DNA of 38,148 nucleotides from Candidatus Limnocylindrales bacterium (GTDB lineage: Bacteria; Chloroflexota; Limnocylindria; Limnocylindrales; CSP1-4). This document shows positions 9,130-31,571 of the stretch, piece by piece; within the stretch, counting starts at the first letter, position 1; each line of letters starts with the position of its first letter. A program made the position numbers and the translations under genes. Below the pieces are notes generated by a model. That model was not told the DNA's origin and searched no databases. It saw nothing but the letters and a program-made list of their open reading frames with translations. The stretch lies in contig DATAFZ010000158.1 of the NCBI GenBank assembly GCA_036257225.1, forward strand, positions 1 through 38,148, in the 5' to 3' direction.

Positions 9130-9308
9130 AGGTTCCCTCCTGGGTGTCGTGCGGTGGTCGGTCTGGACCGCCGACGAGTCTGCCAAAGTCGGCCGAGACG
9201 ATACAACCACGGAGCGATTCACGGTTGATTTCGATTATTGAATCATGAGAATACGGGTCCCGTCGCGTGGGGCGGGCCCCGAAAGGGGGCCCGCGTAGAC
9301 TTCTCGGG

Positions 9309-10178
9309 GTGAGCCTCTATTCGTTGGCCGGGCCGGGTAGCCCCGGCGAGCCCTCGGACCTCATCGCGCCGACGTTCGTGGCCGCATTCGACGGCTGGGT
9401 CGACGCCGGAAGCGCCGCGACGACGGCGCTCGAGAACCTGCTCGACGACGCGGTCGACGTGGCGACGTTCGACCCGGACGCGCTGTTCGACTACCGGGCT
9501 CGACGCCCGACCCTCCAGATCGTCGACGGCCGGCTGGCCGAGCTGACGTGGCCCGAGCTCGTGGTGCGACGCGTCCGCTTCGGGGAGCGCGACCTGCTGG
9601 TGCTGGCCGGGCCGGAGCCCGACGACCGCTGGCAGGCGTTCGCGGGGGCGGTCGTGGAACTCGCCCATCGACTTGGTGTGGTCGAGTGGGTGAGCCTTGG
9701 GGCTATCCCGGCCGCTGTCCCGCACACGCGCGACGTCCCGATCCTCGGCACGACGTCGGAACCCGGTCGGCTCCGTGGCGATATCCAGCCCGGGCCGGCG
9801 GGGCTGCTCCGCGTGCCGGCGGCCGCGATCAGCGTGCTCGAGATGGCCGTGGCCGAGGGCGGGATCCCGGCCGTCGGGTATTTCGCCCAGGTCCCGCACT
9901 ACGTCTCCGGGCCGTATCCGGCCGCGTCGCTGGCGCTGGTACAGGCCCTGGCGCGCCACGTGGGGATCGACCTGCCGACTGGCGACCTGGCCGACGAGGC
10001 GCGACAGCTGCGAACCCGGCTGGACACTGCGACCGCGCTCGAGGAAACGACGCGGACCTATGTGGAGCGGCTGGAATCCATGGTCGATGAGCAGCGGCTG
10101 CCGTCCGGGGACGACCTGATCGGCGAGATCGAGCGGTTCCTGCGCGAGGGCGGCACGGAGGGCCGGCCCCAGAGCTGA
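9309..10178 (+). CDS. PAC2 (proteasome assembly chaperone 2-like) family protein
   Basis: FVAAFDGWVDAGSAATTA..., DYRARRPTL, LLVLAGPEPDDRW and AIPAAVPHTR match the actinobacterial PAC2 family. The preferred start is GTG 9309 (VSLYSL...); ATG 9267 is also in frame. Confidence 0.8.
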   Translation: MSLYSLAGPGSPGEPSDLIAPTFVAAFDGWVDAGSAATTALENLLDDAVDVATFDPDALFDYRARRPTLQIVDGRLAELTWPELVVRRVRFGERDLLVLAGPEPDDRWQAFAGAVVELAHRLGVVEWVSLGAIPAAVPHTRDVPILGTTSEPGRLRGDIQPGPAGLLRVPAAAISVLEMAVAEGGIPAVGYFAQVPHYVSGPYPAASLALVQALARHVGIDLPTGDLADEARQLRTRLDTATALEETTRTYVERLESMVDEQRLPSGDDLIGEIERFLREGGTEGRPQS

Positions 10179-10213
10179 CTGGTCCGCGGCTCGGGGGCCC
10201 GACCGACGAATAC

Positions 10214-10245
10214 TTGACAGAACTTGTCAACTCTGGCGGTACACT
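10214..10245 (+). promoter_or_regulatory. Candidate autoregulated promoter of the WYL regulator (palindrome + -10, leaderless geometry)
   Basis: TTGACA-gaact-TGTCAA inverted repeat at 10214-10230. The TACACT hexamer (10240-10245) ends 6 nt before ATG 10252, and there is no Shine-Dalgarno sequence in between. Confidence 0.4.
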
Positions 10246-10251
10246 GTCCGG

Positions 10252-11241
10252 ATGCGAGCCAGCCGCCTCGTCAACCTCCTGCTGCTCCTGCAGAGTCGCG
10301 GCGGCATGACCGCCACGGAACTCGCCCGCGAGCTCGAGGTATCGGTCCGGACGATCCACCGCGATGTCGAGGAACTGAGCGCTGCCGGCGTCCCGATCTT
10401 CGCCGAGCGCGGTCCGCTCGGTGGGATCCGGCTGGTCGACGGCTACCGTACGCGGCTCACCGGCATGACGGCCGACGAGGCCGAGGCGCTGTTCCTGTCG
10501 GGCGTGGCTGGCCCTGCCGCCCAGCTCGGACTGGGTACCGTCGTCGCTGCCGCGCAACTCAAGGTGATGGCGGCACTGCCGCCTGAGCTCCGGTCTCGGG
10601 CGTCCCGCATCGTCCAGCGCTTCCACCTCGATGCCGCCGGCTGGTTCCAGGCGGATGAATCGGTCCCCCACCTCGCGACGCTATCGACCGGAGTCTGGGA
10701 AAGCCGGGCGCTGGCCGTCGACTACGACCGCGGCAACGAGGTGGTCGAGCGCGTGATCGGCCCGCTCGGGCTTGTCCTCAAGGGAGGTATCTGGTACGTG
10801 ATCGCGCTCGTAGAGGGCCAGATCCGGACGTACCGAGCGTCGCGGGTGGTCGAAGCGAGGCTTCTGGACGAACCGGTCGCGCGGCCTGACGATTTCGATC
10901 TCGCGGCGTACTGGACGGAATCCAGCGCCGCCTACGAGCGCGAGGCCCCCAGGGTCGACGTTGACGTGCGCGTCCGCGAAGATCAAGCGTGGCGGATCAA
11001 CCAGGTGTTCGGCCGCGGCACCGTCGCGGCGTCGCAACGGGTCGACGAGACGGACCATCCGGGCACGATCCGCTTGCGATTGCGCCTCAGCTACCCCGAC
11101 GAGGCGCCGGGGATGCTGCTCGCGGTCGGTCCGAACCTGGAGGTCATCGACCCGCCCGAGGTCCGCGACAAGCTCGTGCTGTTGGCGACGCGGATCGTGG
11201 ACCGCTACCGGCAGACCGCGGCGCCCGACGCGGGTCGCTGA
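10252..11241 (+). CDS. HTH + WYL-domain transcriptional regulator (YafY/PafBC-like architecture)
   Basis: N-terminal wHTH (RLVNLLLLLQSRGGMTATELARELEVSVRTIHRDVEELSAAGVPI). The central segment LGLVLKGGIWYVIALVEGQIRTYRASRV is WYL-like. A C-terminal WCX-like segment follows. Confidence 0.85.
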   Translation: MRASRLVNLLLLLQSRGGMTATELARELEVSVRTIHRDVEELSAAGVPIFAERGPLGGIRLVDGYRTRLTGMTADEAEALFLSGVAGPAAQLGLGTVVAAAQLKVMAALPPELRSRASRIVQRFHLDAAGWFQADESVPHLATLSTGVWESRALAVDYDRGNEVVERVIGPLGLVLKGGIWYVIALVEGQIRTYRASRVVEARLLDEPVARPDDFDLAAYWTESSAAYEREAPRVDVDVRVREDQAWRINQVFGRGTVAASQRVDETDHPGTIRLRLRLSYPDEAPGMLLAVGPNLEVIDPPEVRDKLVLLATRIVDRYRQTAAPDAGR

Positions 11242-12360: not shown

Positions 12361-13350
12361 CTATCCGGCTGAGGCGATCCTCGACACGCCGGACGACGCG
12401 ACCTTCTCCTCGAACCGACGCGCCGCCTCGTCGAGCTTCGCGAGATGGGCCGCAAGTCTGCGCCGGGCCTCCTCTGCCGCGGCGTCGAGGCCCTGGAGCT
12501 CGAAGATCCGCCAGTGGCGCAGGATCGGCAGCAGCACGTCGTCGTGATGGACGCGCAGGTCGTAGATGCCGGCCTTCGCGATCTGCGCGGCCTTGCGGAT
12601 GAAGCCCGGGATCCCGGCCCCCGGCATCTCGAACGCAAGCACCTCGTCGACGATCGCGCGCACAGCGGCAGACGGCTGGACCTTGAGCGCGGCGCCGAGG
12701 ATGTCTCGATAGAACACCATGTGGAGGTTCTCGTCGGCGGCGATGCGGACCATGATCCTGTCCGCCACCGGGTCGGATGAGTAGCGCCCGGTGTTCCGAT
12801 GCGCGATCCGCGTGGCGAGCTCCTGGAACGCGACATAGGCAAGGCCACGCAACGTGCTCGGCGCGTCGTGGTCATAGCCCTGCTGGAGCTGCGTCATGCG
12901 GCCCCGTTCGAGGGCGACGGGGTCGATGTTCCGAGTGACGGTCAGGTAGTCGCGGAGCACGATCGCGTGCCGCCCTTCCTCGGCCGTCCAGCGGCCTACC
13001 CAGTTGATCCAGGCGCCGTCACCCTTGCCGAACATCCCATGGATGAGCCGGTGGTACGAGGGCAGGTTGTCCTCCGTGAGGAGGCCGATCTCGAACGCGG
13101 TCTGGGCGACGCCGGTCAGCCTCGGCTGGTCCGGGGTCCACGGTTCCTTGTCGAAATCCCGACCGAGCCGGTACGGGATGTACTCGTGCGGGAACCACTC
13201 CTGGGCGACCCTGGCGTGGCGATCGAACAGGCGACCGGCCTCGGGCTCGAGCTCGACGAGCAGCGCTCGGTCGGCCTCGAGGGCGTCGGCATGGTCGAGC
13301 GCCTGTCCCGGCTCGAGGCGGCGTTCCGTGTCGGTCACCCTGGTCTCCAT
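12361..13350 (-). CDS. Acyl-ACP desaturase (soluble di-iron, DesA-type)
   Basis: Di-iron ligand motifs TEDNLPSYH, WTAEEGRHA, QELATRIAHRN and AADENLHMVFY, typical of the stearoyl-ACP desaturase family. Confidence 0.9.
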   Translation of the reverse strand: METRVTDTERRLEPGQALDHADALEADRALLVELEPEAGRLFDRHARVAQEWFPHEYIPYRLGRDFDKEPWTPDQPRLTGVAQTAFEIGLLTEDNLPSYHRLIHGMFGKGDGAWINWVGRWTAEEGRHAIVLRDYLTVTRNIDPVALERGRMTQLQQGYDHDAPSTLRGLAYVAFQELATRIAHRNTGRYSSDPVADRIMVRIAADENLHMVFYRDILGAALKVQPSAAVRAIVDEVLAFEMPGAGIPGFIRKAAQIAKAGIYDLRVHHDDVLLPILRHWRIFELQGLDAAAEEARRRLAAHLAKLDEAARRFEEKVASSGVSRIASAG

Positions 13351-13456
13351 GCGATCGGTTCTGCGAGGTCAACCGGAGCGTACCCGCCGCGTGGCCCTCG
13401 ACCCCCGGGACCGATGCGCTCCTGCACACGACCGCGGGACGGTAGACTCCGGCGCG

Positions 13457-14242
13457 ATGCCCGAGCCCCGCCGCGTGACCGCGACCCGGTACGTGACACC
13501 GCTTCGCGAAGGCGGCTCGTTGCCGGGTCTCATGGAGGCCGATGACGACGGCCTCTACGTGGTGAAGTTCCATGGCGCCGGGCAGGGGCCGCGTGCGCTC
13601 GTCGCCGAGTGGCTGGTCGGCGAGATCGCTCGGGCGCTCGGACTCCTCGTTCCGGAGATCGTGCTGGTCGACGTGGATCCCGGCATGGGCGATGCCGAGC
13701 CGGACGAGGAGCTCCAGGACCTGGTCCATCGGAGTGGCGGCCTGAACCTCGGGCTCGATTTCCTCCCTGGCGCGCTGACCTTCAATCCCGCGGCGGCACC
13801 CGAGGTCGACCCGGCGCAGGCCGCCGACGTCGTCTGGCTCGACGCGTTGGCCACCAACCCCGACCGAAGCGTCGCGAACCCCAACCTCCTGCTCTGGCAC
13901 GGCCGGACATGGCTGATCGACCACGGCGCCGCGCTGTACATCCACCACACATGGCGCGAGCCGGCTGCGCATGCGCGCCGGCCGTTCGAGCGGATCCGGG
14001 ATCATGTGCTGCTGCCCTACGCCGAACCCGTCGCGTCTGCGGACGCCCGACTGGCCTCGCGCCTCGATCGAGACCTGTTCACGACCCTCGCCGCCGCCAT
14101 CCCCGACGCATGGCTTCCCGACGACGACCGGGTCGGCGATGCGGATTCGCAGCGGGCAGCCTACGTCGACTACCTCGAGGGCCGCCTGGCCGCCCGATCG
14201 AGCTTCGTAGAGGAGGCGGACCGTGCCCGACGAGCCGCGTAG
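13457..14242 (+). CDS. HipA-like serine/threonine kinase family protein (short form, no HipA N-domain)
   Basis: YVTPLREGGSLPGLMEADDDGLYVVKFHGAGQG is the P-loop-like region plus Lys. LDALATNPDRSVANPNLLLW is the catalytic loop, and LIDHGAAL corresponds to the DxG Mg site. ATG 13457 is preceded by TAGACT (13443-13448). The upstream part of the track ORF is antisense to the desaturase. Confidence 0.75.
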   Translation: MPEPRRVTATRYVTPLREGGSLPGLMEADDDGLYVVKFHGAGQGPRALVAEWLVGEIARALGLLVPEIVLVDVDPGMGDAEPDEELQDLVHRSGGLNLGLDFLPGALTFNPAAAPEVDPAQAADVVWLDALATNPDRSVANPNLLLWHGRTWLIDHGAALYIHHTWREPAAHARRPFERIRDHVLLPYAEPVASADARLASRLDRDLFTTLAAAIPDAWLPDDDRVGDADSQRAAYVDYLEGRLAARSSFVEEADRARRAA

Positions 14243-14612
14243 TCCCTACCAGTACGCGATCGTGCGTGTCGTTCCCCACGTCGAGCGCGGTGAGCGCTTC
14301 AATGCCGGTGTCGTGCTGTTGTGCCGATCACGTGGCTATATCGGCGCCGCAACCTTCCTGGATGAGGAGCGACTCCGCGCGCTCGCACCCGATGCGGATC
14401 CCGCCGCCATCCGCGCCCATCTCGACGCGATCGAACGGGTGGCGAGCGGAGATCCGGCTGGCGGGCCCATCGCTCGGTCGTCGATCGCCGAACGCTTCCA
14501 CTGGCTTGTGGCCCCGGCCAGCACGATCATCCAGCCGTCGGCCGTCCACACCGGTCTGACCGACGACCCGGGCGCGGAGCTCGAGCGGCTGGTCGCCGAC
14601 CTGGTCCGCTAG
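14223..14612 (+). CDS. DUF3037-domain protein
   Basis: YQYAIVRVVPHVERGERFNAGVVLLC matches the DUF3037 N-terminal signature from memory. GTG 14223 overlaps the last 20 nt of the kinase gene. Confidence 0.75.
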   Translation: MPDEPRSPYQYAIVRVVPHVERGERFNAGVVLLCRSRGYIGAATFLDEERLRALAPDADPAAIRAHLDAIERVASGDPAGGPIARSSIAERFHWLVAPASTIIQPSAVHTGLTDDPGAELERLVADLVR

Positions 14613-14615
14613 CCG

Positions 14616-15224
14616 TCAGGCGCCGACGGCGTCGAGCGCGGTCAGCAAGGCGTCGCGCAGCGTCTGCCCGACCGGCGGGCTCGCCGGGACGGCCAGGATC
14701 TCGGGCGCGGCACCCTGCGGACCCGTCACCTGCTCGTGGCAGGCGGCTCGGATGCGCTCGGCCAGCACGTCGGCCTCGCCCTCCTCGGTCTCCGGCAACA
14801 GGATATGGAACCGATCCGCCGCGGCACGTGTGACCCGGTCGGTCTCGCGGGCAAGCTCGCGGAGGATCTCGCCGACCCGAGCCGCGACCCGATCCGCCGA
14901 CCCTGGCCGCACGTTGTCGATGCGCACGACGAGCACCGACGCGGGTCGCGCGTAGCGTGCCATCCGCGCGTCCTCGTGGCGAAGCGCCGCGTCCCAGTCG
15001 GGTCGCGTGTCGAGGGGGATCGGCCGGCGGACGCTCCGGAGCGCCGGTCTACGAGGCGGTCGCGGCGCCCGACGAGCGGCGACGGGCGGCCCGTCGAGGA
15101 ACGCCTCGATGACCTCGCCGACACGCTCGTCGTGGTGCTCGGTAGGCAGGACGAAGCGCGGCCGCCGCCCCGTTCGGGGCGTGCGGCGTCGGGCGAGCGG
15201 CGGCTCATCGGGCAGCTCGGACAT
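14616..15224 (-). CDS. Hypothetical protein with a degenerate GGDEF-like C-terminal domain
   Basis: The pattern ARYARPASVLVVRIDN...RVGEILRELARETDRVTRAAADRFHILLPETEEGEADVLAERIRAA mirrors a diguanylate-cyclase core, but AADRF replaces GGDEF. The start is taken at ATG 15224 (MSELPDE); the longer track start would overlap the MocR gene. Confidence 0.5.
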   Translation of the reverse strand: MSELPDEPPLARRRTPRTGRRPRFVLPTEHHDERVGEVIEAFLDGPPVAARRAPRPPRRPALRSVRRPIPLDTRPDWDAALRHEDARMARYARPASVLVVRIDNVRPGSADRVAARVGEILRELARETDRVTRAAADRFHILLPETEEGEADVLAERIRAACHEQVTGPQGAAPEILAVPASPPVGQTLRDALLTALDAVGA

Positions 15225-15307
15225 CGGGGAAGGGCCAAGTCTAGCCGGGACGCTGGGAAGGGGCCGTGGACGTGCCGCGCGGCAGGCGTCGTGGGCTGCG
15301 CGGGCCG

Positions 15308-16813
15308 TCAGACGCTGACGGCGAGCGACGGCCGGCCGACTCGGCGGGACGAGGGTGCGTACTCCGTCCACGCTGCTGCCAGGCGATCCACACCTTCGAT
15401 GAGCCTGTCTGGGTCCGTGCCGTAGGCGATGCGGATGTGATCGCGGAAGCCACCGTCGGGTGATGCCAGCGGTCCGGGCCGGACGATCACGCCGTGCCGG
15501 GCCGCGAGCCTGCTGAACTGCACGGCGTCTGCGTCCGGCAGCTTGATCCAGAGCGACAGACCGCCCGGCGGCGTCACGAACGACCAGTCGGGGAGCCGCG
15601 CCTGCAAAGCGTCGGCGACGATCGAGCGACGCGTCGCGGCAGCCGCGGCGGATGCGGCGATGACGTCATCGATACGCTCGAGGACCCGCACGGCGATCGC
15701 CTGGGTGATGAGGCTGGTGGCGTGGTCCGCCACGATCTTGCCGGCCACGAGCCGGTCGATATCGGCTCGCGGGGCCCGGATCCAGCCGATCCGGAGGCCG
15801 CCCCATGCCAGCTTGCTGAGCGACCCGATGGTGATGACGCGGTCGCCCGGATCGAACGCCGCGATCGGCGGCGGCGCGCCGACCCCGAGCGTCCAGTCCG
15901 GCGTCAGATCCTCGACGACCTGGAAACCGAATTCGGCCGCAGCCCGCACAAGGTCACGCCGCCGCAGCTCCGGCATCGTGGCGCCGGTCGGGTTGTGGAA
16001 GGTAGGCACGACGTAGGCGAGCTGGACCGGTGCGCTCGCGGCGAGCAACCCGGCCATGTCGACGCGTGGCCCATCCGGATCGACGGGCATCGGCAGCAAA
16101 CGGTTGCCGGTCGTCCGGAACGCATCGATCGCGCCGATGTAGGTCGGGTTCTCGAGCACGACCGCACTGCCCGGGCCGCCGATCTGCGACGCGACCAGGT
16201 GGACGGCCTGCTGTGCGCCATTCGTCACGAGGATCTGGTCGGGGTCGGTGGGGACGCCCAACCGCTCGAGATAGGCGGCGATCGCCACGCGGAGCCGGGG
16301 CAAGCCGAATGGGTCGTAGCCCATCTCCGTCAGCAACGCGGGGACGTCATCGCGCAACGCGGTCTCGATGCAGCCGGCCACAGCCTGGCTGGCCGGCAGG
16401 GCTCCGATCGTGAACTGGATCGCGTCGACATCGTGGTGAACGAGCCAGTCCGGGGGCCCCGCCGCCCTCGCCGACGCGGGGCCGATGCGGAGCGGCGCCT
16501 CGGTGTCGGTGTCTTCGGGTCGGGTCGGCGCGAGCGAGAAGAGTCCCGGACGACGTGTGGCGACGCGCGTACCACTGCCCTGCCGGCTCCGTGCAAGACC
16601 AGCAAGGCGCAGCCGGTCGTAGGCCGCCACGATCGTCGTCCGGCTCAATGCAAGCTCCCGAGCCAACTCGCGCTCGGCGGGGAGCCTGGTCCCTGGCGGC
16701 AGCATGCCGACCTCGATCGCGCGAGTCAGCGCGTCGGCCAGCTGCTCATTCAGAGGATCAGCGCCATCAGCCCACGGCCCCAGCATGCTCACCAGCACGG
16801 ATGCCGAGACCAT
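15308..16813 (-). CDS. MocR/PdxR-family regulator (GntR wHTH fused to a class-I aminotransferase-like PLP domain)
   Basis: wHTH LPPGTRLPAERELARELALSRTTIVAAYDRLRLAGLARSRQGSGTRV. The aminotransferase fold shows VTNGAQQAV, YVVPTFHNPTG, and SLSKLAWGGLRIGW with the PLP Lys. The start is ATG 16813, or alternatively 16786. Confidence 0.85.
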   Translation of the reverse strand: MVSASVLVSMLGPWADGADPLNEQLADALTRAIEVGMLPPGTRLPAERELARELALSRTTIVAAYDRLRLAGLARSRQGSGTRVATRRPGLFSLAPTRPEDTDTEAPLRIGPASARAAGPPDWLVHHDVDAIQFTIGALPASQAVAGCIETALRDDVPALLTEMGYDPFGLPRLRVAIAAYLERLGVPTDPDQILVTNGAQQAVHLVASQIGGPGSAVVLENPTYIGAIDAFRTTGNRLLPMPVDPDGPRVDMAGLLAASAPVQLAYVVPTFHNPTGATMPELRRRDLVRAAAEFGFQVVEDLTPDWTLGVGAPPPIAAFDPGDRVITIGSLSKLAWGGLRIGWIRAPRADIDRLVAGKIVADHATSLITQAIAVRVLERIDDVIAASAAAAATRRSIVADALQARLPDWSFVTPPGGLSLWIKLPDADAVQFSRLAARHGVIVRPGPLASPDGGFRDHIRIAYGTDPDRLIEGVDRLAAAWTEYAPSSRRVGRPSLAVSV

Positions 16814-23122: not shown

Positions 23123-24328
23123 GTGTCACGCTCGCCCGATCCTCCGCCGATGAACGCAGCCGAGCTGCTGCGCGAGGTCGGGCTGCTCCCCGATGGGCCG
23201 GTCGTCTGGGGCCGCCCGGTCCCTGCGCGGTCGCCCGGTGTGTTCGTGGTCGAGCTGCCGGTGCCACGGCCACGGGCCCCGATCGAGCTGACCCGGGTCG
23301 GCAAGTGGGTGGAGCGAGTGCCGACGCTGACGCTCGACGGCCAGCGACCGACATCCCGGGCGGTCGCGGCACGGCTGGCGGCGTTCTGGTTGCCGTCGCA
23401 GGTCGTGCTCTATGTCGGCGCGGCGACGACGTCGATCGGTGGCCGGATCGCGGCGCAGCAACAGACCGCGCTCGGTGATCGGCGACCGCACCCCGGCGGT
23501 CAGTGGCTCCACGCCTTCGACCCGTCCGTGACGATGCGGGTGTGGTGGAGCGAGACCGACGCGCCCGAGGAGTACGAAGACGCGCTGCTCGGCGCGTTCG
23601 CGGCGAGCGTCCCGCCCGACGAGGCTGCGGGGCTCCCCGATACGGCCGTCGTACTGCCCTTCGCGAACCTGCGCCGGCCCACCGGTGAGCGGCGGGCCAC
23701 CGGCCTGGCCGGCTCGTTATTGCCCGACACGCGCCCGCCGGTGCCGCAGCCGACCCGGGTGGTCGTCATGCCGGACGGTGATGCCGAGGGCGCCCGAGCC
23801 GAGCCGCCGGAACGGCAGAGCCGCACCGCTCGGCCCCGGAAGGCGGCGCCCACGACGACGGCCACGACATCGCCGGGGGTCACGCTGACCGCTGACGGTG
23901 CTGCGCGCCTTCGCGCTGAGCTTGACGAGCTGACCGGCGTGCGACGTCCCGAGGTGGTCGGTCGGATCAGGGCGGCCAAGGAGCTCGGTGACTTGAAGGA
24001 GAACGCCGATTACACCTCTGCCCGCGAGGAACAGTCGTTCCTGGAGGGCCGGATCCAGGCCCTCGAGGCGCGGCTTCGCGAAGCGGTGATCGCCGAAGTC
24101 CCGGGCGCCGGGGCGGGCGCGGATGTGGGCTCGCGCGTGACGGTCGAGATCGACGGCTCGGAGATCACCTACACGCTGGTGGGATCGGCCGAGTCGGATC
24201 CGGGTGCCGGTCGACTGTCGATCGCGTCACCGGTAGGTCGCGCGCTGGTCGGGGCGAAAGCCGGCGATACCGTGCCGGTCGAGACGCCGCGCGGGGCCGT
24301 CACGTACCAGGTGACCGCGGTCGAGTAA
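23123..24328 (+). CDS. GreA-family transcript-cleavage factor fused to a ~250 aa uncharacterised N-terminal region (~205-aa folded domain plus a low-complexity linker)
   Basis: C-terminal residues ~252-401 show the GreA coiled coil (LTADGAARLRAELDEL...AKELGDLKENADYTSAREEQSFLEGRIQALEARL) and the FKBP-like globular domain (SIASPVGRALVGAKAGDTV). There is no in-frame stop between the N-domain, the Pro/Thr linker and the Gre part. Confidence 0.75.
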   Translation: MSRSPDPPPMNAAELLREVGLLPDGPVVWGRPVPARSPGVFVVELPVPRPRAPIELTRVGKWVERVPTLTLDGQRPTSRAVAARLAAFWLPSQVVLYVGAATTSIGGRIAAQQQTALGDRRPHPGGQWLHAFDPSVTMRVWWSETDAPEEYEDALLGAFAASVPPDEAAGLPDTAVVLPFANLRRPTGERRATGLAGSLLPDTRPPVPQPTRVVVMPDGDAEGARAEPPERQSRTARPRKAAPTTTATTSPGVTLTADGAARLRAELDELTGVRRPEVVGRIRAAKELGDLKENADYTSAREEQSFLEGRIQALEARLREAVIAEVPGAGAGADVGSRVTVEIDGSEITYTLVGSAESDPGAGRLSIASPVGRALVGAKAGDTVPVETPRGAVTYQVTAVE

Positions 24329-25782: not shown

Positions 25783-28700
25783 TCATCCGTCGCGGATCGA
25801 GGTCACCTCGTCGTGGCTGGGCACGCGCGGAGCACTGGTCGACGCGGCCAGCCGCTCGAGCACCGACTGGTCCATCGTGACCTCGATCGTCGTGCCCGAA
25901 CCGGACTCGCTCGTGCAGACGAACTGCGCGCCGACGCGCTCCGCGCGAGCCCGCATCCCGGCCAGACCGAGGTGGCCCTCGGGTACACGCGTTTGATCGA
26001 AACCCCTGCCGTCGTCCTCGACGCGGAGGCGTACGCCACCGTCCAGCCGACGGACCTCGACGCGCACCCGGTGCGCCGCGGCGTGCTTCACGACGTTGTG
26101 GAGCGCCTCCTGCGCGATGCGGTAGAGGACCTCCTCGGCGGGCAGCGGCAGCCGGTCCGGAAGCTCGCTGTCCACGACGATGGGCAGACCGAGCCGACCT
26201 TGGAGCGCCGCAGCATGGGTCTTGAGCGCGCGCGAGAGGCCCTCTTGCTCGAGGTTGCCCGGGCGCAGCTCGAAGATCAGCGCGCGCATCTCGGCCAGCG
26301 CCTCGCGCTGGAGCTCGCGCAGCTGCGACAGCTGCTCACGCGCGGCATCGGGGTCACGCTCGAGGAGCATCTCGACCGATCGCGAGACGAGCGTCATCGA
26401 GAACAGCGCCTGCGTGACCGAGTCGTGCAGCTCGCGCGCAAGGTGGGCACGTTCCTCGCCAGCGGCGAGCTCGCCGGCCTGTCGCCGCAGCTCGTTCTCG
26501 AGGCGGACCTGGTCGCTGACGTCACGTGTCGCGCCCTGGATCCCGGCGAAGGCGTCGCCGTCCGTGATGCCGATCGCCCGGACGTCGACCGGCACGCGCC
26601 GGCCGTCGACGCCCCGCAGCACGAGCGCCGCCTGCTGTTCGCGGTCGGGGTGCGCTACCAGCTCCGCCCAACGGTTGCCGGCGACCGGGATCGTCGTCTG
26701 GTCGATGATCACCGAGAAGTGCTGACCGATGACATCGTCGGCGCGGTGGCCGGTGACCCGCTCGATGGCGTCGGAAAGGAACGTGAACCGACCCTCCGCG
26801 TCGGTGGAGAACACGATGTCCGGCGAGTTCTGCACCAGGAACCGGAACCGCTCCTCGGACTGGCTCAGCTCGCGCTCGAGGCGCAGCCGCTCCGAGATAT
26901 CGCGTGCGACGCCGTTGATCCCGACGAGGACCCCGTCCTCGACCTTACCAAGGACGTTGATCTCGAGCGCGCGCGCTGCGCCAGCGCCGTCGAGGAAGTC
27001 GATGCGGACCGAGTGGACGCTCGTCGGGTGGGCGAGGACGGCCTCATAGCTGGCCGCTGCCGCGGCCTCCCAGCCCGGCGCGATGAAGTCCATGAACGGT
27101 CGCCCGAGGCTGCGCTCGAGATCCCAGCCGAGCATGGTGGAGGCGCGGTCGGAGAGGAACGTGTACCGACCCTCGGCATCGGTCGCGAAGACCATGTCCG
27201 GTGAGGATGAGGCGAGGTTCCGGTAGCGATCCTCCGAGGCTCGCAGGTCCCGCTCGAGGCGATCGTGGTCGCGCATGTCGCGGACCGAGCCGTTCGCGCC
27301 GGCGAACCGACCGGCATCGTCGAGCGTCGCGAGCGCGATGAACTCGGCCGGCACGGCGGAGCCGTCGCGGTGGCGCAGGTTGAGCCGGCCACGGACCTCC
27401 TGCGACGGGCGGACGAGGGCCGCGGTCCAGTCGATCTCGGCGACCTCGCTCGACGACTCATGGACGAGCGCGCCGAAATGCTGCCCGAGCAGCTCCTCGG
27501 GCCGGAAGCCGGTGAGGCGCTCGACGGCGGCCGACAGGAACGTCAGGCGCGCGTCCGGCCCGATCGACCAGATCAGGTCCGGGGCGTTCTGGACGAGGTA
27601 CCGGTAGCGCTCCTCCGACGCGCGCAGCTCACGTTCGAGACGGGCGCGCTCTGACACGTCGCGAACGGTGCCCTGGGCACCGACCCAGCGGCCGTCCTCG
27701 AAGACGCCCGCGGTCGTCACCTCCGCAGCGAAGGACGAGCCATCCTGGCGGACGAGCGTGAGGGGCACGCGTTCGACCAGATCGGGGTCGCGGCTGACGG
27801 CTTCGTACGCGACGAGCGCCGTCGGCATCGAATCGGGCTCGGTCAGGAAGCCGAAGTGTTCGCCGATGATCCGGTCGACGGGCCACCCGAAGAGCGCCTC
27901 CCCAGAGTCGGCCATGAACGTGAACACGCCTTCGGTGTCGGCCCGCCAGATGACGTCGGGCGTTGTCTGGACGAGACCGCGGAATCGCGCTTCTTCCTGG
28001 GTCACGCGCCACAACAGATTCGAGTTCGTCAGCGCGATGGCGGCCTGGTCGGCCAGGCCCTGGAGCAGGTCCAGGTCGTCGGCCTCGAAGGCACGTGGCT
28101 GCGCGGTCGAGATCGCGAGCGTCCCGATGACCTCACCGCCCGGAGCGCGCAGCGGTGCCGCGGCCATGCCGACCAGGCCCATCCGGCGGGCGACCTGCTG
28201 GTCGTCGGGTTCGTGCGGGATGCGCGGGTCGGTCAGGTACTCGGATGTCCAGACCGGCACGCCGCTCTGGGCGGCCAGCCCGTTGATCCCGCCACCGAGG
28301 GGGAAGCGCATGCCCAGCAGCCAGTCGCGGGCCTCGGGCCCGACGCCCCCGGCCACGACCACCGGGATGAGGTAGTCGCCGGCCGGTGCCATGCGCGTCA
28401 GATGCGCCCCATCGCTCTCGAGCAGACGCTTGGCGTCTTCGACCACCCGCTCGAGGACTTCATCCGGGTCCCGCAGCGCGGCGATCCGCGCCGTGATGTC
28501 GCGCAGCGACCGCTCCGTCTCGGCCCGGCGCGCGAGCGCGAGCTGAGAGCGCTTCAGCTCGTCGATCAACCGGGCGTTCGTGATCGCGATCGCCGCCTGC
28601 TCCGCGAGGCCGCCGAGCACCGCCGCATCCAGCTCGTCGAAGGCGTTCGGCTCGTGACTGATGACCTCGATCGCGCCGAGCGGGCCGGCCTCGCCGAGGA

Positions 28701-31344
28701 TCGGGACCGCGATCAGGTCACGCACCCGGGCGAGCTCGGCGAGCGAATCGGTCAGGTCGTCGTGCTCGAACTCCGCGGAGCTGTAGTCGCCTACGTGGAC
28801 CGGGCGGCGCTCCGCGACCGCCTTGCCGGCCACCCCCTTGCCGACGCGCAGGCTGTTGCGCTTGAGCGCCTCGCGCTGTGCCTCCGGGAGGCCCGCGTCA
28901 TACGCCCACAGCAGGGCCTCGCGCTGGGGGTCGTACTGGTCGATGACCGCGCCATCGGCGCGCAGCAGCCGGCGGGCTTCGTCGACCACGTCCTGGAGCA
29001 CTTCGTCGGGCTCGCGGAGCGCGTTGATACGGGCCGCGATCTGGCGCAGGCTGCGCTCGGCCTCGGCACGGCGTTCGATGTCGGACTGGGAGCGTGCCAG
29101 TGCCTCCATCAGGTTGGCGTTGACGATCGCGATCGAGGCATGGGTCGCGAGGGCGGTCAGGGTCTCCACGTGCGAGTCGCTGTAGGCGCCGAGCTCGCGG
29201 GATACGACCGACAGCACGCCGAGCGGGCGCGCGTCCTCCCCGGTCAGCGGCACCGCGATGACCGCGCGGATCCCGGCGTCCCGGATGAACCGCTCGATGC
29301 CTGGCGTGGTCTGGAAACGATCGTCGGCCAGGAGATCGGCCGTCATCTGCGGACGCTGCTCGGCGAATGCCAGGCCGGCGACGGCCTGGCCGGGCTTGAT
29401 GCCGCCGCTGCGCCCCCAGTCTGGGACGTCGCGCATCGCGTCCCCTGCCGAGTACGCCCACATGAGCGAGCCCGACTCTTCGTCCCACAGGTCGATGCGC
29501 GAGCCATCCGACTCGAGCAGGCGGGCGGCCTCCACGACGATCCGATCGAGCACCTCGGTCGGATCGAGGATCGACGAGACCCGGACGGCGATCTCGCGAA
29601 GCGTGCGCTCGGCATCGGCGCGCCGCGCGTTCTCTTCCCGCGATCGCTCGAGATCGGCGATCAGCCGCACATTGGCGATGGCGACCGCGGCCTGGCCGGC
29701 CAGGCCCGCGAGTACCGCGCCATCCTGCTCATCGAAGCCGTCCGGCCGCTCGCTGTAGACGGTCACTGCTCCGATGACCTCGCCGCGGCGCAGCAGCGGC
29801 GCCGCCATGACCGACTTGATGCCGCCGGCCAGCACGAAGGCATCCCGTTCCGGGGTGTGCTCGAAGCGCCGGTCGGCCAGATAGTCGCCGCTCGACTCGA
29901 CCTTGCCGGTGCGCAGCGTCAGCCCCGAGACGCCGGCGTCGGGCGTGAGCTGGACCTCAGTCAGGAACTTCTCGTCGTACTCGAGACGGTTGTCCGTGTG
30001 GCGAGACGCGCCGCCGGCGGCATCGGTCGGATCGATCAGGTCGATCATCGCCCCGCTGGATCGGAGCAGACGCGTGGCCGCCTCGACCACCGCCTGCAGG
30101 ATCTCGTCCTTGTCGCGCATCGCGGTGACACTCGCCGCGATCTCACGCAGCGTGCGCTCCGCTTCGGCCGTGCGCTCGAGCGCGGCGCGCGATTCGGCGA
30201 GCTCGGCGATGAGCCGCGCGTTGGTGATCGCGATGGCGGCCTGCCCGGCGAGGGCCCGGATGAGTGCCGCGTCCGCTTCGTCGAATGCATCCGGCCGGAC
30301 GGCGTAGACCTCGATCACGCCGAGCGGGCCGTGCTCCCCGGTGATGGGCGCGGCGATCATCGAGCGGAACCCGGTCCGTGCGTAGAACTCGGTGTTCTCG
30401 GGGCCGGGCGGGAAGAGCGATGCCAGATCGTCCCCGGCGACGACGACGCGGTCCTCGGCGACGGCCACACCCGTGGCTCCCTCGCCGACCGAGATCCACA
30501 ACTTCGCCCGCTCCTCCGCTGAGAACCAGCGGCGCAAGCCATCGTCATAGGCCCAGCGCAGATCGCCCGTGTCGGGGTCGAGAAGGTCGAGGATCGCGCC
30601 CTCACCGCCTACCAGGCGGCTGGCAAGCTCAACGACCTCTTGCAGGATCTCGGCCGGGTCGCGGAGTGCCGTGATGCGCGCCGCGAGCTCGCGCAATGCC
30701 TGGTCCGCGGCCGCGCGCCGGGCTAGGTGATTGCGCGACCGATCGAGCTCCTGGCGGGACCGATCCAGTTCCTCGATGAGCCGCGTGTTGGCCATCGCGC
30801 TCGCGGCGTGCTCGGCGAGCGACCGGACCAGCGCGATCTGGGCAGCGTCGAAGGCATCCTGGCGCTTGGAGAAAGCCCCGAGCGCGCCGAACACCTCGTC
30901 GCCCGCAGCGAGCGGGGCCACGACCATCGATCTGATCCCGAGATCGTCGACCACGCGGTCCGCGCTGGCCGCGTGGCGGAAGGACGCGTCGGCCCGGTAG
31001 TCGGTCGTCGTCACCACCGCCCGATCGGCGACGGCCCGCCCGAACATCCCGACGCCCGGCGCGAGCTGGATGGCGCGGATCCACTCGCGCGTGCGTGCCT
31101 TCTTGATGCCCGCGTCGTGGGCGAAGCGCAGGTTGCCGGTGGCCGGATCGACGAGGTAGACCATCGCGCCGTCCGCGTCGAGCAGGCGCGCGGTCTCATC
31201 GACCGCCGCGATCAGCAGGCCGTGGAGGACCCCGGCACCGCCATCCGGGTCGCCACGACGGCGGGGCGGCGTGCTGGCCGGGGCGGACGAGGCGGCTCGG
31301 GGCTTGCGCGTGGGACGAGGGCGGGACGGTGCGGTCATCGGCAT
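25783..31344 (-). CDS. Giant cytoplasmic sensor histidine kinase: 6 tandem GAF + 4 tandem PAS + HisKA_3 + HATPase_c
   Basis: H-box ERAHLARELHDSVTQALF (His codon about 26425-26427), N-box EALHNVVKHA, G1 VEDDGRGF, and G2 GLAGMRARAERVGA. The ten sensor modules are described in the repeat features. The start is taken at ATG 31344 (MPMTAPSRP); the track start is 31518. No TM helix is visible. Confidence 0.9.
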   Translation of the reverse strand: MPMTAPSRPRPTRKPRAASSAPASTPPRRRGDPDGGAGVLHGLLIAAVDETARLLDADGAMVYLVDPATGNLRFAHDAGIKKARTREWIRAIQLAPGVGMFGRAVADRAVVTTTDYRADASFRHAASADRVVDDLGIRSMVVAPLAAGDEVFGALGAFSKRQDAFDAAQIALVRSLAEHAASAMANTRLIEELDRSRQELDRSRNHLARRAAADQALRELAARITALRDPAEILQEVVELASRLVGGEGAILDLLDPDTGDLRWAYDDGLRRWFSAEERAKLWISVGEGATGVAVAEDRVVVAGDDLASLFPPGPENTEFYARTGFRSMIAAPITGEHGPLGVIEVYAVRPDAFDEADAALIRALAGQAAIAITNARLIAELAESRAALERTAEAERTLREIAASVTAMRDKDEILQAVVEAATRLLRSSGAMIDLIDPTDAAGGASRHTDNRLEYDEKFLTEVQLTPDAGVSGLTLRTGKVESSGDYLADRRFEHTPERDAFVLAGGIKSVMAAPLLRRGEVIGAVTVYSERPDGFDEQDGAVLAGLAGQAAVAIANVRLIADLERSREENARRADAERTLREIAVRVSSILDPTEVLDRIVVEAARLLESDGSRIDLWDEESGSLMWAYSAGDAMRDVPDWGRSGGIKPGQAVAGLAFAEQRPQMTADLLADDRFQTTPGIERFIRDAGIRAVIAVPLTGEDARPLGVLSVVSRELGAYSDSHVETLTALATHASIAIVNANLMEALARSQSDIERRAEAERSLRQIAARINALREPDEVLQDVVDEARRLLRADGAVIDQYDPQREALLWAYDAGLPEAQREALKRNSLRVGKGVAGKAVAERRPVHVGDYSSAEFEHDDLTDSLAELARVRDLIAVPILGEAGPLGAIEVISHEPNAFDELDAAVLGGLAEQAAIAITNARLIDELKRSQLALARRAETERSLRDITARIAALRDPDEVLERVVEDAKRLLESDGAHLTRMAPAGDYLIPVVVAGGVGPEARDWLLGMRFPLGGGINGLAAQSGVPVWTSEYLTDPRIPHEPDDQQVARRMGLVGMAAAPLRAPGGEVIGTLAISTAQPRAFEADDLDLLQGLADQAAIALTNSNLLWRVTQEEARFRGLVQTTPDVIWRADTEGVFTFMADSGEALFGWPVDRIIGEHFGFLTEPDSMPTALVAYEAVSRDPDLVERVPLTLVRQDGSSFAAEVTTAGVFEDGRWVGAQGTVRDVSERARLERELRASEERYRYLVQNAPDLIWSIGPDARLTFLSAAVERLTGFRPEELLGQHFGALVHESSSEVAEIDWTAALVRPSQEVRGRLNLRHRDGSAVPAEFIALATLDDAGRFAGANGSVRDMRDHDRLERDLRASEDRYRNLASSSPDMVFATDAEGRYTFLSDRASTMLGWDLERSLGRPFMDFIAPGWEAAAAASYEAVLAHPTSVHSVRIDFLDGAGAARALEINVLGKVEDGVLVGINGVARDISERLRLERELSQSEERFRFLVQNSPDIVFSTDAEGRFTFLSDAIERVTGHRADDVIGQHFSVIIDQTTIPVAGNRWAELVAHPDREQQAALVLRGVDGRRVPVDVRAIGITDGDAFAGIQGATRDVSDQVRLENELRRQAGELAAGEERAHLARELHDSVTQALFSMTLVSRSVEMLLERDPDAAREQLSQLRELQREALAEMRALIFELRPGNLEQEGLSRALKTHAAALQGRLGLPIVVDSELPDRLPLPAEEVLYRIAQEALHNVVKHAAAHRVRVEVRRLDGGVRLRVEDDGRGFDQTRVPEGHLGLAGMRARAERVGAQFVCTSESGSGTTIEVTMDQSVLERLAASTSAPRVPSHDEVTSIRDG
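26515..27993 (-). repeat. Intragenic array of four PAS modules
   Basis: The entry motifs are EEARFRGLVQTTPDVIWRADTEGVFTF, SEERYRYLVQNAPDLIWSIGPDARLTFLS, SEDRYRNLASSSPDMVFATDAEGRYTFLS and SEERFRFLVQNSPDIVFSTDAEGRFTFLS. Each module ends in G..RD(V/I/M)S(E/D) + RLE(R/N)(E/D)L. Approximate bounds are 27649-27993, 27274-27618, 26884-27237 and 26515-26862. Confidence 0.7.
28015..31230 (-). repeat. Intragenic array of six GAF-domain modules (~165-180 aa each) joined by coiled-coil linkers
   Basis: The recurring linker/entry signature is RLIxEL..SR..L.RRAxAERxLRxIA...L(R)DP.E(I/V)L. Examples are ADQALRELAARITALRDPAEIL, AEAERTLREIAASVTAMRDKDEIL, ADAERTLREIAVRVSSILDPTEVL, AEAERSLRQIAARINALREPDEVL and AETERSLRDITARIAALRDPDEVL. 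Approximate module bounds are 30784-31230, 30214-30696, 29659-30156, 29104-29610, 28564-29055 and 28015-28515. Confidence 0.7.
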
Positions 31345-31571
31345 CCGAGGATACGCCGGGCCGTCGAACACGTGGCATCGCCGTTCGGCCGAGCCGTCTA
31401 CGTCATCCGGCCGATACCGGGCTGGACATCGAGCGATGATCGACCGAGGGCGAGCGTCGGCTCCGATCGCGGTCCCTTGCCGGGCGTCAGGGCGGGGCAG
31501 CGGGCCGAGCATGGCCACATCACCGACCGGACTGATCCGGCGCCACCCATAGACGAGGTCCCGACACCGAG

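Follow-up and report, generated by a model that had tools for sequence, protein, structure and literature searches.

The kinase gene and its overlapping DUF3037 partner

The stretch of DNA analysed here, referred to below as the window, comprises 38,148 nucleotides (nt) from a Candidatus Limnocylindrales bacterium of the Chloroflexota (contig DATAFZ010000158.1, positions 1 to 38,148 of the forward strand). At positions 13457 to 14612 it carries two overlapping genes on the forward strand. Both are real, and they encode an intact HipA-like kinase of 261 amino acids (aa) followed by a small DUF3037 partner protein of 129 aa. The original prediction, made from the letters of the sequence alone, had described this pair as an insulated and uncharacterised two-gene module that may constitute a toxin–antitoxin-like or conflict system. 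Re-inspection of the sequence confirms every coordinate given there, as well as the two protein lengths, the 20-nt overlap, the GTG start at 14223 and the spacing of the TAGACT hexamer. The insulation of the pair from its neighbours, by a divergent desaturase gene on one side and a convergent gene across a 3-nt gap on the other, is likewise found in the sequence. The features of the locus are as follows.

13457..14242, forward strand: open reading frame (ORF) of the kinase, 261 aa, from ATG 13457 to the stop codon TAG 14240-14242; a HipA_2-family atypical Ser/Thr kinase, similar to the 'HipA' of HipAD and to PDC-M66A
14223..14612, forward strand: DUF3037 ORF, 129 aa, from GTG 14223 to the stop codon TAG 14610-14612; a short HipD-like protein, equivalent to the N-terminal half of PDC-M66B
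14223..14242, forward strand: 20-nt overlap of the two genes, from the DUF3037 start to the kinase stop, in the +1 frame; translational coupling
14210..14216, forward strand: GAGGAGG, Shine-Dalgarno sequence of the DUF3037 gene, within the 3' end of the kinase ORF and 6 nt ahead of GTG 14223
13443..13448, forward strand: TAGACT, a -10-like hexamer, 8 nt ahead of the kinase ATG
12361-13350, reverse strand: fatty-acid desaturase gene, divergent from the kinase gene across a spacer of 106 nt
14616-15371, reverse strand: convergent downstream gene, whose end at 14616 follows the DUF3037 stop codon after a 3-nt gap

The JGI and NCBI gene calls, made on identical contigs, place both genes at these same coordinates. 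The GAGGAGG element, which the original prediction had missed, strongly supports GTG 14223 as the start of the DUF3037 gene, and no start further downstream is possible because the Pfam DUF3037 match begins at residue 11. In NCBI the products are named 'HipA family kinase' (a cluster 100% identical to the window kinase) and 'DUF3037 domain-containing protein'.

Searches with profile hidden Markov models, a check that had been proposed along with the original prediction, identify both proteins. The kinase matches the Pfam family HipA_2 (PF20613) with an E value of 1.2e-18 and 67.7 bits over residues 16-226 of 261; no other Pfam domain is detected at E <= 0.1, and this includes HipA_C (PF07804) and the HipA N-terminal domains HipA_N and Couple_hipA. 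With a match that starts at residue 16 and no second domain, the claimed lack of the HipA N-terminal domain is borne out. The kinase further matches the PADLOC model PDC-M66A (E 8.9e-23) and phrog_3162, a PHROG family of unknown function. Its sequence motifs comprise a Gly-rich loop (R17-E18-G19-G20-S21-x-P23), a helix-C Glu (E51), a catalytic loop (N134-x-D136-R137...N141-x-N143) and a metal-binding motif (I154-D155-H156-G157). Across 80 kinase homologues of 48-90% identity, these motif residues, the REGGS loop among them, are invariant together with K37; the catalytic residues Lys37, Asp136 and Asp155 highlighted in the original prediction are thus both correctly placed and strictly conserved. 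An AlphaFold2 model of the protein has an average predicted local distance difference test score (pLDDT) of 86.3 and a predicted template modelling score (pTM) of 0.87, with pLDDT values below 50 only in residues 16-21 of the Gly-rich loop. On these grounds the protein is classed as an atypical kinase, intact and with a fold of the CtkA/PI4K/HipA type, from a family distinct from HipA proper.

In the Protein Data Bank (PDB), the best fold match of the kinase model is CtkA of H. pylori (PDB 3AKK; E 7.6e-5, query template modelling score (TMq) 0.55, ~14% identity). PI4K type II alpha ranks second (E 7.8e-3), and Shewanella HipA follows as a weak third (E 0.02, TMq 0.32). Searches of the PDB with the kinase sequence and its profile return no meaningful chain, and the profile finds no HipA chain at E <= 10. 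The label 'HipA-like' hence survives as regards the Pfam HipA_2 match; it is weakened by the missing HipA_C match at E <= 0.1, by the lack of a HipA chain in sequence searches and by CtkA being the nearest fold. The ranking of CtkA and PI4KIIalpha ahead of HipA, together with the absence of a HipA_C match by sequence and the position of the gene next to a fatty-acid desaturase in Limnocylindria, would suit a small-molecule or lipid kinase with a PI4K/CtkA-like fold. The two genes would then form a metabolic pair mislabelled as 'HipA-like', in which the DUF3037 protein has an accessory or substrate-presenting role. CtkA itself, however, is deposited as a protein ('proinflammatory') kinase, the linkage to the desaturase is restricted to one lineage and not kept in other phyla, and homologues of the window kinase, discussed below, are growth-arresting toxins that require the kinase Asp. 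We consider a metabolic pair of this kind improbable. The resemblance to CtkA and PI4KII is one of fold only, these proteins having been compared as solved structures.

The partner is a full-length DUF3037 protein (PF11236; E 8.2e-43, 145.8 bits where the gathering threshold is 22.6, all 118 profile positions covered), and Pfam detects no domain in it beyond DUF3037. Two longer models are matched over their N-terminal portions only, namely PADLOC PDC-M66B (E 1.6e-7, profile positions 4-128 of 281) and phrog_5137, a family of unknown function (positions 3-129 of 279). The conserved residues of the partner are mostly polar and comprise Y11, R15, P18, R22, E24, N27, G29, R91, F92, S100, Q104 and H109. 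The AlphaFold2 model has a pLDDT of 93.7 and a predicted alpha/beta fold, for which Foldseek finds no match in the PDB (best E 1.0, template modelling score at most 0.27); the fold therefore yields no functional lead. Weak PDB matches of DUF3037 to MarR, armadillo-repeat and Runx proteins in sequence and profile searches were dismissed as low-complexity or chance similarity. Among viral proteins in BFVD, the model resembles A0A6G5YJM1, A0A516KZK0, A0A516KTX2 and A0A6J5NRF1, unnamed proteins of 125-287 aa with a DUF3037-like predicted fold (E 9.5e-5 to 6.4e-3, TMq ~0.58), one of which is a short form of 125 aa. They may be phage-encoded DUF3037 (HipD-like) proteins.

The DUF3037 family numbers 1,647 representatives at 50% clustering (E <= 1e-3), of which those nearest to the window protein are mostly 125-140 aa long. 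Longer proteins among the near relatives do not amount to a systematic long HipD form but are mixed fusions, each seen in a single cluster. As a set, the metagenome cluster representatives P0315, P0331, P0349 and P0361 carry DUF3037 fused to PNPOx, NUDIX, nitronate monooxygenase or Fic domains. Errors of gene calling or assembly that join DUF3037 to the downstream gene are the probable cause, although rare real fusions may be among them.

Conservation of the pair and of its expression signals

A survey with one genome per species yielded at least 596 genomes with a relative of the DUF3037 protein, and the best 80 of these were analysed. They belong to the Chloroflexota, to the Actinomycetota (Solirubrobacterales, Thermoleophilia, Acidimicrobiia, Gaiellaceae and Streptomyces) and, in one case, to the Myxococcota (Polyangia). 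In 80 of the 80 DUF3037-anchored loci the gene immediately upstream, in the same orientation, is a kinase homologue, and in 71 of these genomes the two genes are predicted to overlap by 4-23 nt. The most frequent arrangement is the 20-nt overlap found in the window (27 genomes), followed by overlaps of 14 nt (13), 4 nt (9), 17 nt (7), 11 nt (6), 8 nt (5) and 23 nt (4); a 1-nt gap occurs in 3 genomes. The length of the partner is almost always 125-149 aa, and the homologues keep the sizes of 261 and 129 aa. In nearly all of the 80 loci, the start chosen for DUF3037 has a Shine-Dalgarno-like motif ahead of it.

The pairing also emerges from a small sample anchored on neither of the two genes: among contigs collected by their desaturase gene, DUF3037 is present in 8 of the 8 loci that have a complete kinase gene and sequence beyond its end. 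No third gene is conserved across lineages, and synteny around the pair is lineage-specific only. Over 78 loci, the pairwise identities of the kinase and of the DUF3037 protein are correlated (r = 0.78) and average the same (0.594 and 0.584), indicating equal evolutionary rates. Taken together, kinase and DUF3037 are associated, in this order, far beyond chance, and they form a self-contained module of two genes that are inherited together and whose translational coupling is conserved. This supports the coupling proposed in the original prediction, and the families do co-occur and overlap in other genomes, a condition that it had set for its claim.

Upstream of the kinase gene the conserved signal is of a different type. 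Of 71 homologous loci, 42 have a TANNNT box that begins 12-14 nt ahead of the kinase start, where the background would predict 0.2, and a Shine-Dalgarno-like motif precedes the start in only 1 of the 71. In the window itself, the sequence between TAGACT at 13443-13448 and the kinase ATG holds no Shine-Dalgarno motif, and for this reason the kinase messenger RNA is probably leaderless. The leaderless-type geometry noted in the original prediction is thus reproduced in the homologous loci. We relied on the comparative TANNNT analysis because a scan for E. coli-type sigma-70 promoters and intrinsic terminators came up empty, as expected for such an organism. The 106-nt promoter region was also inspected for operator-like palindromes; it contains only imperfect inverted repeats (70-83%), which are unremarkable in DNA of 70% guanine-plus-cytosine (GC) content.

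Relation to HipAD and to other kinase modules

By sequence comparison, the pair is already catalogued: it is of the same family as HipAD, that is, DS-6 of DefensePredictor and the PADLOC candidate PDC-M66. The description 'uncharacterised' is consequently refuted by the PDC-M66 matches, by the NCBI gene names and by the GenBank record of Escherichia phage PhiR5_1, in which genes identical to DS-6 lie between cI and kil and are labelled 'HipA toxin' and 'HipD antitoxin'. The references for HipAD, which comes from an E. coli prophage, are Brenes & Laub 2025 and DeWeirdt et al. 2026.

Function has been studied in two relatives. DUF3037 proteins are strongly associated with HipA-like kinases, the pair bearing the PADLOC label PDC-M66 (PMC12548924); our analysis reproduces this association. 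For a pair adjacent to Retron-Sda1, deletion of the kinase abolishes defence against phage Bas51, deletion of DUF3037 is toxic, and the authors conclude that the two constitute a stand-alone kinase toxin with a DUF3037 antitoxin (PMC12548924). DS-6 was validated and renamed HipAD; it consists of the kinase DS-6A and of DS-6B, a DUF3037 protein with an additional DUF1829 (PMC13092281). The catalytic mutant D139A of DS-6A loses defence, and AlphaFold3 predicts an interaction between the two proteins with interface template modelling scores (ipTM) of 0.76-0.79 as well as weaker binding of DNA by DS-6B (PMC13092281). DS-6A has 249 aa and DS-6B 275 aa, and their genes overlap by 4 nt (supplement of PMC13092281).

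Alignment of profiles with hhalign relates the window kinase to DS-6A with a probability of 98.3% (E 1.9e-14, 26% identity), and D139 of DS-6A aligns with D136 of the kinase (NADRT versus NPDRS). The partner aligns with DS-6B at a probability of 96.6% (E 5.3e-10, 24% identity), over residues 3-127 of 275 only. As in HipAD, a HipA_2 kinase of ~250 aa is encoded first and is followed by an overlapping DUF3037 gene on the same strand, an order that recurs in DS-6, in PhiR5_1 and on Pseudomonas plasmids. The catalytic Asp is kept, and both HipB and the N-terminal HipA domains are lacking. The two systems differ in the partner: HipD/DS-6B is a 275-aa protein with a C-terminal DUF1829-like, predicted DNA-binding domain, whereas the window partner, at 129 aa, consists of DUF3037 only. 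They also differ in gene overlap, 4 nt in DS-6 compared with 20 nt in the window, and in location, HipAD residing in a lambdoid prophage immunity region with relatives on conjugative or mobilisable plasmids, whereas the window locus is chromosomal, syntenic and placed among housekeeping genes. The same domain difference applies to PDC-M66, both of whose models are matched by the window proteins, with the B model, of 281 positions, covered at 4-128 only. The Retron-Sda1 pair resembles the window pair as a two-gene stand-alone module. Its DUF3037 protein, however, has a C-terminal region reminiscent of retron type III-A1 DNA-binding proteins, and it lies beside a reverse transcriptase and a non-coding RNA; the window locus has no reverse transcriptase, non-coding RNA or extra domain.

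With canonical HipBA and HipBST the window pair shares a Pfam clan, and it would share the general scheme in which an atypical Ser/Thr kinase arrests growth and a protein encoded beside it neutralises the kinase. By analogy, S21 in the invariant REGGS loop, which is modelled as flexible, may recall the loop serines that are autophosphorylated in HipA and HipT; the aligned position is Thr in DS-6A. The kinase differs from these toxins in belonging to PF20613 rather than PF07804 and in lacking the N-terminal subdomain, for which no HipS equivalent is detected. The module has no HipB helix-turn-helix (HTH) partner, the putative toxin gene comes first, and the putative antitoxin is of unrelated fold. 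That no HipB-like protein is encoded next to the kinase, as originally claimed, is supported by the identity of the upstream gene, the divergent desaturase; the nearest HTH gene, of the WYL type, is ~2 kb away, past two intervening genes. A canonical HipBA persistence module, with an aminoacyl-tRNA synthetase as the substrate of HipA and the DNA-binding HipB holding HipA in check, could be argued from the Pfam name (HipA_2, of the HipA_C clan) and from the weak fold match to Shewanella HipA. Yet PF07804 is not matched at E <= 0.1, the PDB profile search gives no HipA chain, the 261-aa kinase lacks the N-terminal HipA domains, no HTH gene lies upstream, and the partner is a downstream, non-HTH protein. 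Membership in this class is refuted by the domain and neighbourhood tests, and we regard the canonical reading as extremely improbable.

Rather, we think it probable, if not secure, that the pair represents a minimal, chromosomally fixed kinase toxin of the HipAD type with DUF3037 as its antitoxin. Gene structure, coupling, catalytic residues, co-occurrence, co-evolution and homology to tested systems are established for the window pair itself. Toxicity of the kinase in the absence of its partner, rescue by the partner and kinase-dependent defence are properties of the homologues, and would extend to the window pair by analogy. The toxin–antitoxin-like part of the original inference has accordingly gained experimental backing in homologues (PMC12548924, PMC13092281), and its 'uncharacterised' part has fallen away. 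The operon would be transcribed from a -10-only promoter as a leaderless messenger RNA. Ribosomes that finish the kinase would re-initiate at the GTG behind the internal GAGGAGG, such that DUF3037 protein would be made whenever kinase is made. The DUF3037 protein would then bind the catalytically competent kinase and, as an antitoxin, keep it inactive. Once this hold is lost, because the partner disappears or because infection, stress or a similar trigger intervenes, the kinase would phosphorylate an essential protein and growth would stop. Direct binding of the two proteins, the target and the trigger are steps that we infer for the window pair.

Chromosomal setting and function of the pair

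Several observations weigh against this reading. The order of genes from the WYL regulator through DUF4112 and the desaturase to the kinase and DUF3037 is kept in ~17 species genomes of Candidatus Limnocylindrales or uncultured Chloroflexia, and across these the identity of the pair, 64-90%, tracks the pace at which its neighbours diverge. The neighbourhoods inspected in the Chloroflexota, Actinomycetota, Myxococcota and Bacteroidota are housekeeping regions and not defence islands. Kinases of the window type have no match in 50,697 phage records; they occur in 10 plasmid records, of which 9 are non-mobilisable and most are of megaplasmid or chromosome size. Against 2.9 million viral contigs, the DUF3037 profile gives only 2 weak matches. 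The window proteins share no more than 24-26% identity with those of DS-6, the tested partners are proteins of ~275 aa with a C-terminal domain that is absent from the window partner, and H109, invariant in the window-type subfamily, is Arg in DS-6B. Finally, the partner equals the kinase in conservation, and its invariant polar residues resemble those of an enzyme. As a rule, antitoxins evolve more rapidly than the toxins they neutralise, an expectation at odds with the equal rates of the two proteins.

Further features of the locus agree with a settled chromosomal position. Among the scanned neighbours of the pair there is no integrase or defence domain, and the window contains no supported transfer RNA (tRNA) gene or GC anomaly, the GC content of the pair matching that of the surrounding DNA. 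Short overlapping pairs among housekeeping genes are also found in Vitiosangium, Capillimicrobium, Roseiflexaceae and Bacteroides finegoldii. For contrast, DS-6A is found in 3 temperate phages and in 25 plasmid records, 15 of them mobilisable or conjugative, and one of the plasmid examples adjoins copies of IS91. The mobility signature of the window subtype is thus opposite to that of DS-6A, and a stable, domain-reduced form embedded among housekeeping genes fits a classical mobile defence system poorly. Because the partner lacks the DUF1829/DNA-binding half and the pair is vertically inherited among housekeeping genes, we rate a dedicated anti-phage role in this organism lower than the toxin–antitoxin assignment as such, as a serious but minority possibility.

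The same data invite a different explanation, namely that the two genes form a housekeeping signalling pair, with the kinase as a physiological regulator and DUF3037 as its dedicated substrate, activator or sensor subunit. DUF3037 may, for example, accept phosphate at the conserved S100/T101, as in partner-switching modules, and loss of either gene would alter regulation and not kill the cell. Such a function would account for vertical inheritance, for synteny maintained over 64-90% identity at the neighbours' rate, for the housekeeping neighbourhoods in four phyla, for the absence of the window subtype from phages and its near absence from mobilisable plasmids, for the unremarkable GC content, and for a partner that is as conserved as its kinase and invariant at R15, E24, N27, R91, S100, Q104 and H109. 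Against this, E. coli experiments show homologues of the two proteins behaving as a toxin and its antitoxin (PMC12548924; PMC13092281). The tested systems also have the strict order with the kinase first, the overlap and the coupling in common with the window pair, and phosphorylation of DUF3037 is a supposition. We view the signalling pair as possible, if rather unlikely, and retain the HipAD-type toxin with its DUF3037 antitoxin as the favoured assignment.

An attempt to distinguish core from accessory status by means of the desaturase gene was discarded. In metagenome contigs with enough upstream sequence, 10 desaturase-anchored loci contain the kinase and 44 do not, and almost none of the 44 kinase-less loci shares another neighbour with the window. 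Desaturase homologues of 80-89% identity turn up in many unrelated settings, which makes the gene a poor synteny anchor, and this 'empty site' test therefore says nothing about whether the pair is core or accessory. In some contigs (loci L101 and L106), close homologues of the window's desaturase stand in tandem duplicate.

The window otherwise carries genes of an ordinary chromosomal kind. Those identified include TetR, ABC transporters, PAC2, the WYL regulator, DUF4112, the desaturase, a MocR-type regulator, a beta-lactamase-family protein, GreA and a histidine kinase with GAF and PAS domains; several other ORFs are without a Pfam match. Additional observations on these regions are given below by position.

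9267-11241, forward strand: a PAC2 gene, similar to proteasome assembly chaperones, and behind it a gene for a WYL/WCX HTH regulator (PafBC-like), upstream of the pair and separated from it by two genes; this synteny is kept in related Limnocylindria (L001, L002, L005, L006) and has no link to the kinase pair outside the lineage
12911-12978, forward strand: a match to the Rfam family ASdes (RF01781; 58.4 bits versus a gathering score of 40), antisense to the desaturase gene at 12361-13350 (reverse strand); ASdes is an M. tuberculosis small RNA antisense to desA, and the match may just reflect conserved desaturase coding sequence, not a genuine small RNA in a Chloroflexota genome
14616-15371, reverse strand: the convergent downstream gene, probably degenerate, in which GGDEF is matched only weakly and in part (29 bits, profile positions 54-109 of 161); it is absent at the same position in the related genome L005 and is hence not part of the module
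23123-24328, forward strand: a 401-aa ORF in which the GreA N- and C-terminal domains occupy residues 254-401 only, so that either the true start lies far downstream or the protein has a long N-terminal extension
25783-31518, reverse strand: a very large sensor histidine kinase (1,911 aa), in which about six GAF domains and four PAS domains precede HisKA_3 and HATPase_c
27581-27653, forward strand: a tRNA-Arg(CCG) called by ARAGORN, antisense within the histidine kinase ORF and without an Rfam tRNA match; probably a false positive

The family, its gene order and its toxin–antitoxin and defence behaviour have already been published, and both genes are named in databases; for annotation, the pair should be labelled HipAD-like or PDC-M66-like and not 'uncharacterised'. 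What is new is the subtype whose partner consists of DUF3037 alone; it is vertically inherited and non-mobile, and in several phyla it is the common form. The DUF3037 fold, predicted by modelling and without a solved relative, and a conserved operon design that the sequences indicate to be leaderless and coupled, are further additions. Pairing of the kinase with DUF3037 has been validated as a toxin–antitoxin-like anti-phage system only in its mobile form with a long partner, whereas the short-partner form is much more widespread, being represented by a relative of the short partner in at least 596 species genomes. With two small proteins, no DNA-binding domain and a fold model of high confidence, it offers the simplest available system in which to study the effect of DUF3037 on the kinase.

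The locus also bears on the question of whether every such pair serves defence or whether some may have become fixed as cellular regulators. In a more far-reaching version, which we judge unlikely, the DUF3037-only form would be a 'domesticated', vertically inherited one in which DUF3037 is more than a passive plug, and the anti-phage systems with a long HipD would be a derived offshoot. Given its confidently predicted fold, for which no solved relative exists, and its enzyme-like invariant polar residues, DUF3037 might then serve as sensor, enzyme or phospho-acceptor and tie the growth-arresting kinase to an endogenous signal. If this were true, the mobile long-HipD systems would have gained their DNA-binding tail, and the pair would constitute a physiological switch for growth or stress in the Chloroflexota, Actinomycetota, Myxococcota and Bacteroidota.

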